Shown here piece after piece: positions 19,839 through 53,640 of a stretch of 64,000 nucleotides of DNA; positions within the stretch are counted from its first letter, which is position 1; each line of letters opens with the position of its first letter. Origin of the DNA: a virus. The DNA lies in IMG/VR virus record IMGVR_UViG_3300048854_000232, positions 160,618 to 224,617 of that record; one strand, given 5' to 3'. The translations under genes were made by a program, and so were the position numbers. The notes under the pieces are model-generated. The model did no database searches and was not told where the DNA came from. It worked only from the letters and a program-made list of their open reading frames with translations.

Positions 19839-20495
19839 ATGCGCATCTTCCTGGTCCGTCACGGGCAGTCCGAAGCCAACGTCGGGTTGCACGATTACAG
19901 CGCCGCTGGCGATCACGCCATTGTCTTGACCGACAAAGGCCAGCGCCAAGCCGAAGAGGCGGGTGCACTGTTGAGCCCCACGCTTCAGCAGGTCCATAGC
20001 CGCACTCTGATCTACCGTTCGCCGTACACACGGACCCGGCAGACCCTGGAAGGCATGTTCCGCGGCGCTGGCGTCGCCGGTACACCGCGCGTGTTCGAAG
20101 ACCCGCGTCTGCGGGAGACCGATCACGGCTACAGCGACATCGACGAACAGCAAGCGCTGCGCAACATCCACGGTTGGTTCTACTACCGCTACGCCGGAGG
20201 TGAGAGCCCTGCCGATTGCTCGGACCGGATGAGCAGCTTCCTGGAAAGCATGATGCGCCAGGTGTGGCGGAAGGATCCTACCGAGGTCGTCATCGTCACC
20301 CACGGCCTGTCCATTCGTTGCTTTGTCATGCGCTTCCTGCACCTGACCGTGGAGCAGTTCGAGTCGATGGCCAATCCGGGCAACTGCGACATCATCCGCA
20401 TCGACAACCGCGAAAGTATCACCGACCCGGTGTTCACCAGCGGTCGTTGGGCGGTGGAAGGCATCAAGCTGCGCGAACCAGCACCTATCGCCTAA
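19839..20495 (+). CDS. Histidine phosphatase (phosphoglycerate mutase family)
   Basis: LVRHGQS, SPYTRTRQT, LRE, GGES and VTHG motifs. Confidence 0.9.
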   Translation: MRIFLVRHGQSEANVGLHDYSAAGDHAIVLTDKGQRQAEEAGALLSPTLQQVHSRTLIYRSPYTRTRQTLEGMFRGAGVAGTPRVFEDPRLRETDHGYSDIDEQQALRNIHGWFYYRYAGGESPADCSDRMSSFLESMMRQVWRKDPTEVVIVTHGLSIRCFVMRFLHLTVEQFESMANPGNCDIIRIDNRESITDPVFTSGRWAVEGIKLREPAPIA

Positions 20496-45922: not shown

Positions 45923-46080
45923 GTGGGGACTCCTGAGAGGAAAGGCGATAGAGCCCGGAAAGGGTCATAAGTTTAGCCAGTCGCCCCCTTAAGATTTTTA
46001 CAGCACCCCGCCATGGGATGAAACCGGTGCCTACCATAGCGTATGAGTCACATCACACGCACTCTTGCGAGGAACAGAGT

Positions 46081-46761
46081 ATGGGGATCGGAATGATTAG
46101 CACGTGGATCATGAGTAAGGTGAGCCTGAAGGGCTTTCTCATCCTGATCGCGCTGTGTTCGTGCAGTTACCTGGGCTACGAAGGTTACAACTGGATTTAC
46201 AATCGGGGCGCTGCCCACCAGTTGACGGCCATCGACCAGCCCAAGATCGACACCGCCGTTAAGGCGCAGGCCAAGGCTGAGGCAGACAAAGCGGCCTACG
46301 TCCAGACTTACAATGACTGGATCACCACGACCAATGCGAGCAACGCCGCGCTGATCGCGCAGCAGAAAGCCACCATCGACAAACTTCAGACCCAAGCCAA
46401 TCAGCTCCCGGCTCTGGTCCAAGCCAACGAGAAGCTCAAACATGAAATCACTTCGTACATCTCCGCTCAAGTGGATGCTGCTTGCGTACTGCCTGTCGGC
46501 TTTGTCCGCCTGTACAACAGCTCCGTCCAAGCCGACTCCCCCGCCGGGACCGGAACTGACGTTCCCGCAAGCCTTGCCGGAAATGACGCAAGCCCGTCCG
46601 GCATTGCGTGCAGTGTCATGGCCAGCGTCCTCCTCGACAACACCAACGAAGCCGTAATCCGTGGCAAGCTCTTGGGGATGTGGCAAACCTGGTACGCGGA
46701 GAACTCCGCTAACTTCAACGCAGCAGCCAAAGCCAAAGCCGCGGCCATTCCCAAGGAGTAA
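46081..46761 (+). CDS. Rz-like inner-membrane spanin
   Basis: N-terminal transmembrane segment, coiled coil, and DAACVLPVGFVRLYN motif. Confidence 0.75.
   Translation: MGIGMISTWIMSKVSLKGFLILIALCSCSYLGYEGYNWIYNRGAAHQLTAIDQPKIDTAVKAQAKAEADKAAYVQTYNDWITTTNASNAALIAQQKATIDKLQTQANQLPALVQANEKLKHEITSYISAQVDAACVLPVGFVRLYNSSVQADSPAGTGTDVPASLAGNDASPSGIACSVMASVLLDNTNEAVIRGKLLGMWQTWYAENSANFNAAAKAKAAAIPKE
46442..46657 (+). CDS. Embedded Rz1-like outer-membrane lipoprotein spanin
   Basis: +1 frame inside the Rz-like gene; lipobox LSA-C followed by a Pro-rich segment. Confidence 0.5.
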   Translation: MKSLRTSPLKWMLLAYCLSALSACTTAPSKPTPPPGPELTFPQALPEMTQARPALRAVSWPASSSTTPTKP

Positions 46762-46764
46762 GCG

Positions 46765-47382
46765 ATGCTTACCATTGCCAGCCTCGCCTTCTGCCTGCTG
46801 GGCGTCCTCTTTGTCATGATCGGCCGCTACCGGCTCAAACGTCAAAGCCGCCTGCATGCCCTGCTGGCCTACCAAATGCTCATGCGGGAGAAAGACCAGG
46901 GTGACGCGGTACGTATGGCCAACCTTTTCGCCGATAACCTGGCGGAAATGGAACTGCAGTGCAACATCGACGTCGCTCGAGCAGATTACCTGGAAGAGCA
47001 GCTGGGGGAGACCCGACATCGACTCAATCGGGCCCAGGCGGTTCATGAAGCCAATCTGGAAGCGGTCAAGCGCCGTTACCAGCGTCGCTTTGTGGAAGCC
47101 GGTCGGGAATGCCTGAACACCAAACTGGCCCAGTACAAGCTGAGTCAGGATCACCTATCCACCATGGCCTCGATGGATACCCTGGTGTCCAACGTGGTGG
47201 ACCTGTTGCGAGAGGCGAAGATCAAGCCGCCCTCGGAAGTGGACTTCGATTCGATGCGCAAAGCCAAACCGGCCGAACGTGCGATGGGTCTGCTTTATCA
47301 GTACCTGGCCGCGCGTGCGACCACCCAGGCACTGACCACGCCCGCAGTACTCCTGCGACAGAAAATCTCCCTCTCCTCGTGA
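46765..47382 (+). CDS. Membrane-anchored coiled-coil protein
   Basis: SD AAGGAG; N-terminal transmembrane segment. Confidence 0.6.
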   Translation: MLTIASLAFCLLGVLFVMIGRYRLKRQSRLHALLAYQMLMREKDQGDAVRMANLFADNLAEMELQCNIDVARADYLEEQLGETRHRLNRAQAVHEANLEAVKRRYQRRFVEAGRECLNTKLAQYKLSQDHLSTMASMDTLVSNVVDLLREAKIKPPSEVDFDSMRKAKPAERAMGLLYQYLAARATTQALTTPAVLLRQKISLSS

Positions 47383-47417
47383 GAGGGGGTTTTTGCCCTA
47401 AATTCAGTAAATTCCAA

Positions 47418-47547
47418 TCTGGGGGACGTATCTGTGAAACGCCTCAGCTTTGGGGATCCTGACCAGTCGCTCCTAGCCCTTCCTTTGAGCACAGACGACT
47501 TACCATGAGTTGTTGACGACCAAAGAAAAGACTACGAACGCTCCAGA
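47418..47547 (+). ncRNA. Candidate small structured RNA
   Basis: No plausible gene; ends pair (TCTGGGG/CTCCAGA); nested stems; bounded by two terminator hairpins. Confidence 0.4.
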
Positions 47548-47550
47548 CAC

Positions 47551-47581
47551 GAGGCTCCCCCACAAGGGGAGCTCTATGCCG
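47551..47581 (+). terminator. Hairpin terminator + TATGCC
   Basis: GGCTCCCC-CACAA-GGGGAGCT CTATGCCG. Confidence 0.75.
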
Positions 47582-47592
47582 TCAAGGACCTA

Positions 47593-47619
47593 TTGAACGC
47601 ATTTTCAAACCTATAGTAC
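47593..47619 (+). promoter_or_regulatory. Putative phage early promoter
   Basis: TTGAACGCATTTTCAAACCTATAGTAC. Confidence 0.65.
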
Positions 47620-47661
47620 TCCGGTGAACCTAAGCAATTCACAATCCTTCTGGAGACTATT

Positions 47662-47988
47662 GTGGCCCTTTCCACGCATCCCTCGTTCGACGATTACATG
47701 GCTGATCTCCGTGCACTCCGTCAGGAGCTGGATGAGGCCCGAGTAATACGCACACAGTTGCTAGATGCCCAGGAGAACGGGACCCCGCCGCTGGCTCCGC
47801 TCATTGCCCAGCTGTGCCCGATGGTCAAGGCCATCAAGCAGCGGCTGTACCACCTCCGCAAGGAGGCCAACATGCCCGACTGGTTCGACCCGTGCAAGGT
47901 CCGCGAGCACCTCGCTCCGATGGAGCAGGACGTGCGTCACCTGGAGCTGGACCTCACGGACGCAGAGATCTGCTGTGATTTCGCTTAA
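47662..47988 (+). CDS. Hypothetical early protein
   Basis: SD GGAG; GTG start. Confidence 0.6.
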   Translation: MALSTHPSFDDYMADLRALRQELDEARVIRTQLLDAQENGTPPLAPLIAQLCPMVKAIKQRLYHLRKEANMPDWFDPCKVREHLAPMEQDVRHLELDLTDAEICCDFA

Positions 47989-48027
47989 GCACTTCCTCAT
48001 CCGACTTCATTTAAGAAGGACTTTATC

Positions 48028-48156
48028 ATGAAGCTCTTGCCGTTTCTCCTGGGCTTGGTTGGTGTGCTCTGCGAAGTAGGGTTTAAGGCGGCGACCGCAC
48101 CACGCGTGGCGCCCCGCCAGTACGGGACCATGCAATACCCCCAAGATATTCACTAG
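48028..48156 (+). CDS. Small hydrophobic protein (42 aa, not in ORF track)
   Basis: SD AAGGA; MKLLPFLLGLVGVLCEVGFKAATAPRVAPRQYGTMQYPQDIH. Confidence 0.55.
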   Translation: MKLLPFLLGLVGVLCEVGFKAATAPRVAPRQYGTMQYPQDIH

Positions 48157-48170
48157 CGAAAGGATTGCTC

Positions 48171-48536
48171 ATGCGCGGATTACTCCTCCTTTACTTCGGT
48201 TTAGCTGGAATGGCCCTGTACCACATGCGCGGCAAGCACAAGGCGCAGGCAGAAGCCCGCGCGAATTTGCGTGATGCCGATCGCGGCTGGAAGCGCGTGG
48301 ACGAATTGAAAGAGCTCTTGGGTCAGTTGTCCACGGCCACACTCAACATGACCGACGACCAATACAGGGTGTTGTCGGCAGTCGCCGAAGACATGGGCCT
48401 TACCATTCCCACGGACCTGGACGCACCGTTACCCGCCGATGCGGAGCCGATCCTCAAGCACATTGTCACCCATCACCGTTTGGCGGCGGATTGCCGCGTT
48501 CAGATTCTTCTGAACGCGAGTCGACGCGCTGCGTAA
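48171..48536 (+). CDS. Membrane-anchored hypothetical protein
   Basis: SD AAGGA; N-terminal transmembrane segment. Confidence 0.6.
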   Translation: MRGLLLLYFGLAGMALYHMRGKHKAQAEARANLRDADRGWKRVDELKELLGQLSTATLNMTDDQYRVLSAVAEDMGLTIPTDLDAPLPADAEPILKHIVTHHRLAADCRVQILLNASRRAA

Positions 48537-48563
48537 CCCTTCTCTTACCTACAAGGCCCCACC

Positions 48564-48971
48564 ATGTTCAGCCTGCCCAACATGTTCCAGCGCAAGACGC
48601 CCTTGCCTCCCACCGAAGCAAAGGTGTCCTCTTTGGTGACCACCACGGTCTCCAAGGATTCCTTCGACAAGCTGTGGAAGCTGCGTCATAGCCGTAACTT
48701 CACCGTGGTTGCCCATGCCTTGGGTATTGCCACCGACGTCGAACAGTTGCAGCTCAAAGAAGGCCAGGTTGCCTTCGAGTTGGATCAGTTCGGTCGTCGC
48801 TTCTTGCACATCGGACACAAGGGCTTCGTGCTGACCTTCCACGACCAGTTTGGTCAGAAGGACGCCCGTAAGACCGTGGTCTACAAGGAACCCCGGTTCC
48901 CGGAAAGCCCGTTCACTGACATCGGTTCGGCCCGTAACCTGCTGAACCACACCGCCTACCTGTACACGTAA
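48564..48971 (+). CDS. Hypothetical protein
   Basis: SD AAGG; 135 aa. Confidence 0.6.
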   Translation: MFSLPNMFQRKTPLPPTEAKVSSLVTTTVSKDSFDKLWKLRHSRNFTVVAHALGIATDVEQLQLKEGQVAFELDQFGRRFLHIGHKGFVLTFHDQFGQKDARKTVVYKEPRFPESPFTDIGSARNLLNHTAYLYT

Positions 48972-49036
48972 GCCCCGCCTCCGCATTGGCGGTTTTGCCT
49001 CTCTTCTCTTTCACCACGTCCTCGGGGGACATCACC

Positions 49037-49585
49037 ATGAACGCAATCAAACTACTCGGCGCTGTTGTATTGGCTGGTATCGGCTATGCCAGCTATCGTT
49101 ACGCGCAACGCCGTATCGCCAATGCCCTGATCGATGCACTCGATCCGACCATCAACACCCTTTCCAGCACCAACACCCAGGAAACCAGCATGCAGTCCGA
49201 GACCACCGCAACCGCCATCGCCGAGAACTTCTCCAACCTCTTCCAGGGTCAGTTCGACGTCCTGTGGAATGCTCGTGCAGACAACGGCATGGCGCTGGCT
49301 TACGACCCGCGTTGGGAAGCCGATCCGGCGTTGGCCGTCACGACCAGCCCGCTGGCCGAAGGCGTGTACGGCTGGGTGGAAGGCGCCGACGGCGAGCGCT
49401 TCCTGGTCGTGGGCGGTGGGGACATGAACCTCATCGTGTTCGACCTGAACAAGGGCGATGGCGCTGAATACCTGTGGCCCAACACCATCGAGGGCATCGA
49501 GTCGGATGCGTACATGCTGATGCTCCTGCAGGGTCTGAATGAGCAGTTCGACGAACTCGAGCTGCAATACGCCAACCAGGCGTAA
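49037..49585 (+). CDS. Membrane-anchored hypothetical protein
   Basis: SD GGGGGA; N-terminal transmembrane segment; followed by a terminator hairpin at 49592-49620. Confidence 0.65.
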   Translation: MNAIKLLGAVVLAGIGYASYRYAQRRIANALIDALDPTINTLSSTNTQETSMQSETTATAIAENFSNLFQGQFDVLWNARADNGMALAYDPRWEADPALAVTTSPLAEGVYGWVEGADGERFLVVGGGDMNLIVFDLNKGDGAEYLWPNTIEGIESDAYMLMLLQGLNEQFDELELQYANQA

Positions 49586-49667
49586 AAGGCGGTGGGGTCC
49601 CTTCGGGGGCCCCACTCTCTCCCACCGGTGTAGTTTTTTTGAAACCTACACTATCCACTTGAAGTCA

Positions 49668-50426
49668 TGCAGAGGACGCGTTTATCGGGGTTAATCTTGG
49701 GGAGTACGTAAAGTGAACGATCCAATCAGGTTCAGCACCACGGTGGAAGAAAGTCTGATCCGCGCCGCCCATGCGTGTTTGGTTACGCATGTGCATAAAC
49801 TCGAACAGTACTATCAAACCCGCGCAATTCCGGATGACCCGTTAGAGATCCCCACTCTAGGGGTCGTTATCGTTACCCGCTTGGACCACGCACGTCGATT
49901 ACAAGCGAGTATTGCCGGATTGCTGTCCTGTTGCCATGACGGTAACGATTCCCACCACGCGGAGCGTGACCACCTCGAGAAAGTGTTGGCATCCACCACC
50001 ACACTCCTTGATCACATGGAAAGCCTGGCCACCCGCAGTCAAACGCTGGTGGCTGATCTGGCAACACATCGGCAGGCCGTTAAGGGCTGCTACCATGCCT
50101 ATTGAGTCGCTGACGGTAATTTCTTACCCCATCAGGCGATGATATAGCAACAGGCCGCGATACCTGTTGAGGACGTGAACTTACGGTGTACACGTTCTAG
50201 TTTAGTGCCAGAATGCCTACTGGGGGTACGCTGGTTAAACCGTGTTGGTCGATTGCCGTCCATAGCCGTGGACAGCACCGACCCTGTTGGTCATGGTCGT
50301 GGGTGCGCTTTGAGCGCGCTCGCTTACGGGCGAGCCACTGCCGCCATGAGCAGCCTTCAGCATTTGATCCGTGGGGCCATAACCTCGGGCCGAGTGCTGA
50401 TGGATGTTCAGGGGAGCGTCGTTGCA
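49668..50426 (+). ncRNA. Candidate large structured RNA (about 760 nt)
   Basis: More than a dozen helices tile the region, the 5' and 3' ends pair, and there is a 9-bp long-range pseudoknot. A promoter-like motif lies upstream and a terminator downstream. Confidence 0.55.
49713..50105 (+). CDS. Possible 130-aa helical protein inside the structured region
   Basis: GGAG SD and GTG start, amphipathic pattern; codon usage is atypical for this genome. Confidence 0.4.
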   Translation: MNDPIRFSTTVEESLIRAAHACLVTHVHKLEQYYQTRAIPDDPLEIPTLGVVIVTRLDHARRLQASIAGLLSCCHDGNDSHHAERDHLEKVLASTTTLLDHMESLATRSQTLVADLATHRQAVKGCYHAY

Positions 50427-50432
50427 AGGGGA

Positions 50433-50470
50433 GCATAGCGCCTAGGGAAAACCCTAGGCGTTTTATGCCG
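50433..50470 (+). terminator. Hairpin terminator with GCATA...TATGCC flanks
   Basis: GCGCCTAGGG-AAAA-CCCTAGGCGT TTTATGCCG. Confidence 0.8.
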
Positions 50471-50505
50471 TCATCTTAACTTACCACTTTACGAAGGACC
50501 GCGAC

Positions 50506-51093
50506 ATGAAGTATTTGCGTTTGATCGCCCAGCAGGACCCGAGCCAGCCGATGGGCAAGGCGCTGTGGGACGTTAACCAGGACTGCGCCGCCCGCTATGC
50601 CGATCCGGGCTTTGGTAAAATGGGTCAGAAGACGGGGCAGGAACTCAAGGCGGGCATCCTCGTCATCGACGCGCTCATCGGTGAACGGCCCGCCAATCAG
50701 ACCCACGGCTTCGTGACCGAGATGGTCTACGTGGCACCGATCTGGGCCATGGGTTACATGCGGGCAGCCTTGCTGACCCTCTTCGACGAGCACGTCAACC
50801 GCGCCTGGCGGGGCGAGCCGGTTCCTTCGGCCGGTATGGTATCAGTCGATGATCTCTACTCGGCTGTCCTGCGCACGACCTCCCACCATGTCGTTACCCG
50901 CCGTGAACTGCTGATCGACCACGAACGACTCGCCTGCGTGTGGGAGATGTATCGCCAGCTCTATCTCCTGCAGGACATCGTCAAGGACTCGCAGCAGCAG
51001 GGCGCTCGCGGCGCCCACGCGAAGCTGATCGACATCCAGATCGGCGTGGAGATCATGGTGGTGAAGGTCAATTACACCGAAGGCACCTTTTAA
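50506..51093 (+). CDS. Hypothetical protein
   Basis: SD AAGGA; 195 aa. Confidence 0.65.
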   Translation: MKYLRLIAQQDPSQPMGKALWDVNQDCAARYADPGFGKMGQKTGQELKAGILVIDALIGERPANQTHGFVTEMVYVAPIWAMGYMRAALLTLFDEHVNRAWRGEPVPSAGMVSVDDLYSAVLRTTSHHVVTRRELLIDHERLACVWEMYRQLYLLQDIVKDSQQQGARGAHAKLIDIQIGVEIMVVKVNYTEGTF

Positions 51094-51123
51094 TCACTTT
51101 ATCGGCAGTTAAGGATTTTAGTA

Positions 51124-51444
51124 ATGACCGATTTTTCTGAGTTCACCATCGGTGCACCCGATCGCTTGTCCATCTCTGCTGAGCGCAGCAAACAGGACCG
51201 TATCGACGCCGAACGCTGGCGGGCCCTGATGGCCTCTGCCCGCCTTCGCATGCTTGGGACGGCGGGCTTCAAGAGCGAAGACCCCAACGACAAGTACCGT
51301 CACATGGGTCTGGAGCTGTGGACCCAGTACGGCGGTAACCCTGCCGATCACGTCGCCGGTAATGCGGAGGCCTGTGCGAAACTTACAGCGTATGCTGACG
51401 TTATGCGGGAGCTTCAGGACACGCCGCCGACTCCGTCCACCTGA
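51124..51444 (+). CDS. Hypothetical protein
   Basis: SD AAGGA; DAERWRAL motif. Confidence 0.6.
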   Translation: MTDFSEFTIGAPDRLSISAERSKQDRIDAERWRALMASARLRMLGTAGFKSEDPNDKYRHMGLELWTQYGGNPADHVAGNAEACAKLTAYADVMRELQDTPPTPST

Positions 51445-51472
51445 CCTTCACCTCATTGATTGAGATCCTTCT

Positions 51473-51937
51473 ATGCCCACGCAGCAGCCACCTCAGGAAC
51501 TGTCGTCCAACCGACCGTATCTGTTTCGTGCGATCTACGAGTGGCTGACTGCCAATCAGCAGACACCGCACATTCGCATCAACGACACCCAAGCCCCGGG
51601 TGTGCGTGTACCGCCGCAGTTCCATACTGGCAACCCACTGATCCTGAACATCGCCAAGGTCGCAGTCGCAGACCTGGTCATGGCCAACGAGGGCATCTCC
51701 TTCTCGGCACGTTTTAACGGGCGTCAGTTCGAGATCTACGTGCCGATGGACGCCATCGCCATGCTTTACGGTCGCGAGTCCGGTGCTGGCATGCTGTTTC
51801 CGGATGAGGACTTCAATCCGGAACCGGAGAAGGTCCCTGAGCTCGCCGATCAGGACGCCGTGGTCGAAGAGACCGTACCGGAACCGCGCGATCCCAATCC
51901 GGATCCGCGTCGTGCCCACCTGCGTGTGGTGAAGTAA
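51473..51937 (+). CDS. sspB: ClpXP protease specificity adaptor SspB
   Basis: RPYLFRAIYEWL..N..TPH, LNI, ISFSARFNG, ESGAGMLF, and the C-terminal ClpX-binding tail HLRVVK. Confidence 0.93.
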   Translation: MPTQQPPQELSSNRPYLFRAIYEWLTANQQTPHIRINDTQAPGVRVPPQFHTGNPLILNIAKVAVADLVMANEGISFSARFNGRQFEIYVPMDAIAMLYGRESGAGMLFPDEDFNPEPEKVPELADQDAVVEETVPEPRDPNPDPRRAHLRVVK

Positions 51938-52002
51938 ACCCTCCGCTAGCTCAGAGATCCTGCGGGGTCTCTGGGCGGCCTATGCTTTTACAGGAGTTAG
52001 AC

Positions 52003-53061
52003 ATGTCCATCAGTGCCGTTTCTGTCTTTCAGGAAATCCACGACCTGATCGTCACGCTGTTCACCCGCAACAGCGTCGCGCGTCTCCAGAGCCTCCACCG
52101 TACCGTCGTCATGTCCGCAGAAGAGATCGGCAAGCTCGAAGATAATTGCCGCAAGGCGCTCGATGAGTTGCTGCCCACGGAGTTTTACGGCCGTGACGCC
52201 TCAGACGAAGAAGTGGCGCTCTTAGAAGACCTGCGCACTAGCGTGCGTGTTAACAAGCCAGTCAGTCTGCAAGAGCAGGACGCTTACTGGGCTCGCCTGG
52301 AAGCACTCCCGCACCTCCACCAACAAGCCGAAGCCGTCGAAGCCGAGGCCGTGAAGGTCAACGAGGTCCTGATCGAGATTCCCGAGGGCCTGCTAAACGA
52401 ACACGGTCACTTGACCGGGTTCTTGGACTGGTTCCGCTCCACCGGCATGGTGATCCCGCCCAAGACCCGTCTGGTCGGTCTGTATAAGGCCAAGAACGCA
52501 CGGGGCGAGGACGTCTACTGCCGTGCCGAGATCTTCGAGCCGAAGTGGCTGCGGCAGTACCTTCCGGAGAAGGACGCCACGAACTACATTACCGACGATG
52601 TGGTGGTCGAACATATCCAAGGTAACATGATCAAGGCGGAGCACTTCCCGTACATCAAGGCGATCCCTGCGGAAGGGGAAATTCCTGACATCATCTGGCG
52701 TAAGGGGTTGCCCGGTTACGAGGAGGGGATCTACCAGTACAGCGTCAACTACATCTACATGTGGATGGACCGGAACCTCTACGCCTGGTGGCATGCCGTG
52801 GTCCAGGATAAGAACAATCCCAAGGACAGTGCAGAGTGCCGTCGCCTGTGGAAGGACAAGACCTTCGCCACCCCGCTGTACGATATCAGCTGGCGGGGTA
52901 AGGAGTCGCCTTCACGACCCACACGTGAAGAGCTGCAGTTCTTCGAGAGGATCCGTACCCAGCATCGGACCAACGAGAACCCCTCAGTGGAATGGATCGA
53001 CGCCGTGCTGCGCGATATGCTCACCCTGTCTAACGTGAACTGGTTGGCCGGGTCGGAGTAA
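52003..53061 (+). CDS. Hypothetical protein
   Basis: SD AGGAG; 352 aa. Confidence 0.7.
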   Translation: MSISAVSVFQEIHDLIVTLFTRNSVARLQSLHRTVVMSAEEIGKLEDNCRKALDELLPTEFYGRDASDEEVALLEDLRTSVRVNKPVSLQEQDAYWARLEALPHLHQQAEAVEAEAVKVNEVLIEIPEGLLNEHGHLTGFLDWFRSTGMVIPPKTRLVGLYKAKNARGEDVYCRAEIFEPKWLRQYLPEKDATNYITDDVVVEHIQGNMIKAEHFPYIKAIPAEGEIPDIIWRKGLPGYEEGIYQYSVNYIYMWMDRNLYAWWHAVVQDKNNPKDSAECRRLWKDKTFATPLYDISWRGKESPSRPTREELQFFERIRTQHRTNENPSVEWIDAVLRDMLTLSNVNWLAGSE

Positions 53062-53121
53062 TCCCTTACGGGAGAGTGGACTGATATGTACTTTCAGCCA
53101 CTCTCCCAAAAGGACCTCACT

Positions 53122-53640
53122 GTGACCGAGACTTCGTTCGTCAAGACCTCCCGCATCAACCACATCGCCGGCAATCTGATCGGCGATCCGAACAACCCGG
53201 ATTGGGCTGCCCTGGAACGTCAGATCAACCTGATCCAGTCCGAACTGGACGAGGCCAAGGACTCCCTGGCCAAGCGCGACATCGAGACCCTGCGTGATGA
53301 CGTGGGCGATGTGCTCTTCACCGCCTATGGTCTGGGTCACCGTGCCGGCTTCCCGGTGGACGAAGACTTCGGCGAAGTGTGCCGTTCGAACATGACCAAG
53401 TTCGACAGCAACGAAGACGACGCGGTCGGGACCGTCCTCAAGTACGAGAAGATCGGTGTCGAAGCCCGCGCCACGCCCAAGGTCGTGATCGTCGATGGCG
53501 TGACCAAGACCTTCTACGTCACCCACTCGACCAAGGACCAGACCGGCACCGACGGCCGCTCCTACCCGGGTGGCAAGTGGCTCAAGTCGTTCCGCTTCGA
53601 AGAGCCGGTGTATTCCAACCTTTCCACTGCCGAGGCATAA
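53122..53640 (+). CDS. MazG-like/PRA-PH nucleoside triphosphate pyrophosphohydrolase
   Basis: LIQSELDE...RDDVGDVLFTAYG...EVCRSNMTK...GKWLKS..FEEP. Confidence 0.8.
   Translation: MTETSFVKTSRINHIAGNLIGDPNNPDWAALERQINLIQSELDEAKDSLAKRDIETLRDDVGDVLFTAYGLGHRAGFPVDEDFGEVCRSNMTKFDSNEDDAVGTVLKYEKIGVEARATPKVVIVDGVTKTFYVTHSTKDQTGTDGRSYPGGKWLKSFRFEEPVYSNLSTAEA

Follow-up and report, generated by a model that had tools for sequence, protein, structure and literature searches.

A conserved structured RNA follows a small protein gene in a nucleus-forming jumbo phage and recurs in other large phages

The locus lies in a 64,000-nt stretch of DNA (the window, to which plain coordinates refer) from a 294.6-kb phage genome, and consists of a 130-aa protein gene followed by a structured non-coding RNA, both on the plus strand. 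The genome encodes a nuclear-shell protein and split RNA polymerase subunits, and the window phage is therefore a nucleus-forming jumbo phage. By chimallin comparison its nearest cultured phages are Xanthomonas phages LucasX and RTH11 (31-32% identity), and no close relatives were found in IMG/VR using neighbour proteins or chimallin. Genes flanking the locus (46018-53640) are spanin-like, SspB-like and MazG-like, and the gene order of this segment is conserved in LucasX and in part in RTH11. A contig from the related phage X3 skips 404 bases of the window (48147-48550) and so does not contain the 123-aa ORF. The sole tRNA of the window is a tRNA-Ala(GGC) at 20037-20115. Elsewhere in the genome, codon-based calls leave further gene-free gaps of 0.8-1.25 kb (G000:C1:148252-149504, 253214-254280, 95884-96848, 131625-132495 and 46509-47308), which may hold more RNAs or atypical genes.

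The gene upstream of the locus ends in a terminator-like hairpin with a UUCG loop and a weak U tail (49592-49615, plus strand), which is followed by a phage promoter-like motif (49634-49659, plus strand). A matrix for this motif, trained on 4 sites, gave 13 matches genome-wide, of which 9 are non-training sites, 12 are on the plus strand and all 13 are intergenic by gene calls. The motif begins 79 nt 5′ of the GTG at 49713, the corresponding distance at the other plus-strand sites being 25-137 nt. It is likely of the early class, by analogy with the AT-rich early motif of phiKZ given in the accessible text of PMC8244752. At the other end of the locus, a terminator hairpin with a U tail (50433-50470, plus strand; stem 50438-50461, pair probability 0.99; hairpin and tail 50438-50465) overlaps the TTATGCCG motif of the next gene, an 8-mer found upstream of 10 genes. 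The TATG motif at the terminator is presumably a late promoter, and the same arrangement of terminator and motif is present in LucasX and RTH11. A simple consensus terminator scan missed the hairpins at both 49592-49615 and 50438-50461. The original prediction described these flanking signals as bounding a 760-nt RNA in a transcription unit of its own. The two hairpins and the promoter-like motif were recovered as described. The promoter-like motif and the terminator hairpin imply one predicted transcript that spans both ORF and RNA, and no separate promoter was found for the RNA, which lies behind the gene in that transcript.

The protein gene extends from 49713 to 50105 (plus strand). Five homologues (P0003-P0006 and P0008; 135-145 aa, 27-31% identity) align in register from residue 1 with 23 invariant columns, and the structure model is a three-helix bundle with a pLDDT of 88.5. 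Another candidate homologue, P0002, was discarded as a repetitive chance match. PHROG, Pfam, PDB and fold searches gave no significant match, with generic helical bundles as the only returns from atlas and fold searches, and no DNA surrounding the relatives of the ORF was found in viral, metagenome or genome collections or in cultured phages. In X3, three of the 4 changed codons in the 5′ half are synonymous (among listed changes, 6 of 21 differences on the contig being unlisted), and five of the last ten codons before 50088 keep their residue, each via a synonymous change. On the strength of the homologues, the synonymous changes and the model, the 130-codon ORF, which had been described as overlapping the 5′ half of an RNA, is a genuine protein gene.

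The 5′ half had also been proposed to be structured. The complementary stretches reported for it are present, but its folding energy is unremarkable (z -0.42; 34 of 100 shuffles equally good). A claimed pseudoknot between 49869 and 49941 is at chance level, as a perfect 9-bp complement occurs in 39% of 441-nt genome tiles, and a claimed pairing of the two ends (49668-79/50416-26) has a probability of 0.02, X3 altering its 5′ arm at 49670, 49678 and 49679 with no listed change in the partner. It is thus very unlikely that the locus encodes a single RNA of 760 nt that overlaps a coding ORF, or a dedicated system of RNA and protein. Such a unit would account for the folding of the whole 766 nt (z -5.73, 20 shuffles) and of one segment inside the ORF (z -2.73), for the length of the LucasX and RTH11 RNAs (about 600 nt) and a 9-nt LucasX match to 49977-85, and for the fact that the gene adjoins the RNA in X3 too; it is contradicted by the z value of the 5′ half, by the freedom of synonymous sites and the loss of the end pairing in X3, and by the distribution of the protein. 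The 130-aa protein is absent from all four cultured relatives searched, two of which, LucasX and RTH11, have the RNA. Because these two phages carry the RNA without the protein, a link between protein and RNA is unsupported, and the protein gene is probably a mere transcript carrier for the RNA and not its partner.

The structured non-coding RNA comprises about 340 nt (50088-50432, plus strand; ends approximate), and its 5′ edge overlaps the final codons of the protein gene. Conservation with X3 sets in abruptly at 50088. Within the RNA 13 of 386 positions differ, compared with 219 of 1904 in flanking genes (p=1.4e-7), the latter count covering four gene pieces and leaving out four shorter ones; X3 is one relative only, with a contig depth of 2.6-3.6 (3.6 at the RNA). 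Twelve changed sites are listed, with one indel pair re-aligned by hand and four differences near contig ends unlisted. Four of these sites form two compensatory pairs, 50255/50276 (G-C to A-U) and 50369/50388 (C-G to U-A), three convert U-G to Watson-Crick pairs (50244, 50363 and 50368), one gains a pair, two are unpaired, and two break pairs at helix edges. A peripheral hairpin (50247-50283, plus strand) contains the first compensatory pair, the gained pair and one break. The 3′ domain (50350-50400, plus strand), a GCAGCCUWCA motif with a long stem that is common to LucasX and RTH11, contains the second compensatory pair, two U-G to C-G changes and the other break.

The 3′ part of the locus is conserved as a plus-strand RNA structure. 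The U-G to C-G and U-A changes match pairing in plus-strand RNA, and this speaks against a DNA-level element (an origin, packaging or protein-binding site), which we regard, together with a degenerate second ORF at 50175-50438, as barely credible. Either would be compatible with the single copy per genome, and the ORF has 87 codons, ends at the terminator and has its frame preserved by the X3 indel pair. Its codon score, however, is far below that of called genes, in keeping with the earlier view that this portion holds no convincing gene; in X3, 5 of its 8 changed codons are non-synonymous and there is a long invariant stretch besides, and no long open frame is found there in LucasX or RTH11. 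A soil metatranscriptome from another study provided one 221-nt contig that covers 50157-50377 with 0 differences, in a run that consists of contigs only, may contain DNA and does not reveal strand, ends or level. This run has no contig across the flanking genes of 48000-52000, an absence that is not evidence.

Folding of the 3′ part is better than that of shuffled sequences (z -3.75; 0 of 100 shuffles equally good). In a matched test, 6 of 99 random coding windows (325 nt) fold below the RNA's value of -3.48, and the claim for an RNA is therefore carried by conservation and not by energy. Helices at 50106-40, 50148-69, 50170-98, 50207-35, 50247-83 and 50357-400 have mean pair probabilities of about 0.9-0.99, in agreement with the helices proposed for this half. 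A branched domain, also proposed, at 50291-349 is less certain, with two competing folds and a closing helix at about 0.6. Taken together, these data make a conserved structured RNA at 50088-50432 very probable. What stands of the original prediction of an undescribed ncRNA of about 760 nt is an undescribed structured RNA on the plus strand; its length is about 340 nt, and the 5′ half is the protein gene.

Homologues were not readily found from the window RNA itself. Single-sequence models R1 and R2 did not significantly detect the LucasX and RTH11 copies, a BLAST search with the full region matched 50,697 phage records at the terminator only, and three window-only patterns, which gave 11 viral loci, 46 metagenome loci and 0, were rejected as yielding chance matches or none. 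At the syntenic place, both LucasX and RTH11 leave about 800-850 nt without annotation. Each of these gaps contains the same loop motif, downstream partner and GCAGCCUWCA motif, as well as a terminator with TTATGC behind it. The RNAs in these gaps are about 600 nt long (LucasX L113:375-980, folding z -4.13; RTH11 L112:316-950, z -2.12), and 5′, middle and 3′ blocks are conserved beyond a common core. A pattern derived from the window, LucasX and RTH11 had 1 match in 2.9 million IMG/VR contigs, in G001, a complete 244.7-kb chimallin-encoding genome, and BLAST starting from G001 led to RP13, Psa21, phiHQ and Xoo-sp13. The core is present once per genome in these four phages, in LucasX and RTH11 and in the IMG/VR chimallivirus G001, and it is unannotated in all public records checked.

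A sequence-only family model (R3) built from seven members had a single match in each of 8 of the 12 records searched, among them the sole held-out member, Xoo-sp13, at E 4.2e-5. There was no R3 match in FLC9, Xoo-sp14, phiKZ or RAY, and because four of the 12 searched records lack a match, the RNA is not universal. The window/LucasX/RTH11 and RP13/Psa21 subgroups appear to be joined by short motifs (a 10-nt loop and a 6-7-nt partner), a like architecture, synteny and the IMG/VR match. In a reversed-sequence control, a loose pattern of the two motifs had 0 matches in the window genome and 1 in LucasX, and for this reason the two motifs alone prove no homology. The core spans genomes with chimallins that are only 28-32% identical.

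In the window the core occupies 50095-50246 (plus strand; family model match G000:210712-210863, a sequence that was in the training set). It consists of hairpins, a stem-loop bearing ACUUACGGUG, a variable hairpin and then AACCGUG. The loop of the stem 50170-77/50191-98 supplies the 5′ strand of a predicted pseudoknot (50182-50187, plus strand), which is complementary to a 3′ strand at 50239-50244 (plus strand), where the X3 change at 50244 converts U-G to U-A. In all seven members compared, the loop UACGGU is complementary to ACCGUG or ACCGUA located 15-61 nt downstream, and the pseudoknot loop closes a stem whose sequence varies among the 7 members. The RNA would thus be pseudoknotted, as had been claimed, but through 50182-87 and 50239-44, which are conserved across homologues, and not through 49869/49941.

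Covariation was assessed in an alignment of 8 rows, in which 95.1% of 102 cells are paired and 7 of 17 pairs show two-sided change, the tested structure having been chosen from the same sequences that were used for the count. None of 500 shuffles was as high on any measure, and slid controls pair at 21-39%. Two-sided covariation comes from 5 rows (RP13, Psa21, phiHQ, Xoo-sp13 and G001), on which the two stems were counted, the window, LucasX and RTH11 being gapped in those columns. The pseudoknot itself is near-invariant, with two-sided change in 0 of 6 pairs in an alignment where MAFFT misplaced the Xoo-sp13 strand; read by eye, both sides of one pseudoknot pair are changed in that phage. The pair at 50244 is U-A in 4 aligned rows and U-G in 4. 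A search for homologues and covariation, which had been suggested as a check, yielded a core with covarying stems in seven other large phages; the pseudoknot and helices are predictions.

The surroundings of the core differ among these phages. In RP13 its 3′ end is separated from tRNA-Leu by 3 nt, and in Xoo-sp13 the distance is 7 nt, to an unannotated tRNA-Leu-like sequence identified by eye. Unannotated tRNA-like sequences, again identified by eye, lie directly 3′ of the core at L122:1290-1700 of Xoo-sp13. In Psa21 and phiHQ the core is located 3′ of a gene that has about 620-630 codons, occupies the chimallin position and, as we infer from size and synteny, encodes chimallin; in Psa21 the core is overlapped by a 243-nt hypothetical CDS on the opposite strand. 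In three phages the core falls within 0.6-1.8 kb of sequence that is free of ORFs, and a terminator-like hairpin closes the ORF-free stretch in the window, LucasX, RTH11 and G001. The G001 stretch (L115:1660-3440, minus strand) is about 1.8 kb in length and has no long sense-strand ORF; it is rich in GNRA-capped hairpins, with the core near its 5′ end and a terminator at its end, and is possibly one very large ncRNA, or several.

These contexts bear on whether the element acts only within the transcript that carries it. A cis-acting 3′ element that is never released, serving as a nuclease roadblock or a protein-binding site that stabilises or localises its mRNA or pre-tRNA, would fit the location between stop codon and terminator in the window and the position behind the long gene in Psa21 and phiHQ. 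The chimallin transcript of phiKZ, according to the accessible text of PMC10914365, likewise extends 360 nt past the stop codon, to 47888. We nonetheless consider such an element unlikely, as the core precedes a tRNA in two phages and lies in ORF-free stretches in three, the window phage's own chimallin gene lacks it, and phiKZ has no model match. The PHIKZ054-055 gap of phiKZ (L120:3530-3923) contains the 360-nt transcribed chimallin 3′ tail at the place that the core occupies in Psa21 and phiHQ. Look-alike strands noticed there by eye were not counted; one is an ordinary UUCG hairpin, and they have no model match.

The proximity to tRNAs suggests a different activity, in which the core belongs to an undescribed class of ribozymes and, by cleaving itself or processing the transcript, would free tRNA 5′ ends or part the RNA from mRNA. 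The compactness of the core, its near-invariant loop letters, the 15-61 nt that separate the two strands of the pseudoknot and the spacing of 3 and 7 nt before tRNA-Leu all agree with this, and tRNA-adjacent phage ribozymes (theta) are documented in the accessible part of PMC10879173. Yet the invariant letters are mostly the pseudoknot pairs themselves, no Rfam ribozyme matches, the window, LucasX and RTH11 have large conserved flanking domains and, more weakly, the contig from the RNA run continues past the 3′ edge of the core. We therefore regard a ribozyme as a minority possibility, if one to be taken seriously. The broader proposal, of a new ribozyme class across nucleus-forming and other jumbo phages that would mature tRNA 5′ ends and set large phage RNAs free independently of host RNase P and RNase E, seems a shade less probable again.

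The reading that we favour, with about even confidence, is that the RNA is a stable processed molecule that acts in trans as a folded scaffold, in the manner of GOLLD and ROOL. It would be transcribed behind the small protein gene from the phage promoter, the transcript would be trimmed to a stable RNA of about 340 nt, and this RNA would act during infection as a binding or assembly scaffold. The differing contexts make control of one particular gene unlikely, and the varied settings (genes, tRNA, ORF-free stretches) are the behaviour of an independent RNA gene that rides on available transcripts. The cores 3 and 7 nt before a tRNA argue against a scaffold, since a processing role fits them better. 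Whichever applies, an RNA that is kept across genomes with about 30% identical shell proteins has gone unannotated in cultured phages, and its presence there makes its structure, cleavage and role directly testable. Were it catalytic, it would represent a ribozyme class not yet described; as a scaffold, it would extend GOLLD- and ROOL-type RNAs to tractable lytic phages in which DNA is shielded and RNA is exposed to host defences.

Comparison with known RNA classes supports the novelty of the motif. At gathering and E-value thresholds, Rfam gave nothing relevant in the window, LucasX, RTH11, G001, RP13 or Psa21, and ARAGORN found nothing at the locus; specifically, group I and II introns, RNase P, tmRNA, 6S RNA and riboswitches had no Rfam or ARAGORN match there. 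The scan is sensitive here, since away from the locus it did detect 3 group I introns of this genome. These introns are at L004:2571-2899, L004:6414-6717 and L006:18831-19195, the first two 3′ of RNA polymerase subunit ORFs. Type III toxin-antitoxin RNAs consist of repeats of 30-60 nt in tandem and precede the gene of the toxin; this class was rejected, the RNA here being downstream of a gene and having no self-BLAST repeat, and the protein having no significant Pfam or fold match. With regard to retrons and DGRs, no repeat partner was found in the genome (best E 0.06), and a PHROG search with 15 ORFs in and near the locus gave no RT match.

Known self-cleaving ribozymes (hammerhead, HDV/theta, twister, pistol, hatchet) had no Rfam match, theta possibly being without an Rfam model of its own. 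Theta ribozymes sit at the tRNA 3′ end, whereas the element here is 5′ of the tRNA, has one predicted pseudoknot and lacks an Rfam HDV-type match. The likeness to the theta (HDV-like) ribozymes of gut phages, as far as the available text describes them (PMC10879173), is that of a small pseudoknotted RNA beside phage tRNA genes. The accessible portions of PMC10914365 describe ncRNA1/2 of PAK_P3 (about 210 and 120 nt) as processed RNAs from phage mRNA 3′ ends, and for the UTR-derived ncRNA candidates of phiKZ and PAK_P3 they report conservation at the level of a genus; the RNA here shares an origin 3′ of a gene and is set apart from that description by a core spanning such divergent chimallin genomes. 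The motif is not described in the accessible text of PMC10914365, PMC8244752 or PMC12571901 on phiKZ transcripts and small RNA candidates. A literature search, with subscription journals mostly outside its range, found no description of a conserved structured RNA in jumbo phages that form a nucleus. Outside Rfam, candidate RNA motifs of viruses have been compiled computationally in large catalogues, and the motif may be listed in them.

The closest parallels are GOLLD and ROOL, which the available text of 10.1101/2024.12.08.627333 presents as phage-encoded, large, ORF-free, pseudoknotted RNAs that frequently neighbour tRNA genes, combine a conserved part with variable domains and have an unknown function. 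The RNA here is likewise phage-encoded, large, ORF-free and, by prediction, pseudoknotted, with a tRNA nearby in some phages and a conserved part accompanied by variable domains; all eight members are in phages and two of the 8 are directly before a tRNA, a placement like that of GOLLD, ROOL or OLE. In contrast, it has no Rfam match, covariance models of GOLLD, ROOL and OLE do not match in the window, LucasX, RTH11, G001, RP13 or Psa21, the core measures no more than about 95-150 nt, the size of the RNA ranges from under 0.3 to possibly 1.8 kb, and its hosts are large lytic phages of Proteobacteria. The RNA is thus likely to represent a new class of phage structured RNA that belongs to neither the GOLLD nor the ROOL family.
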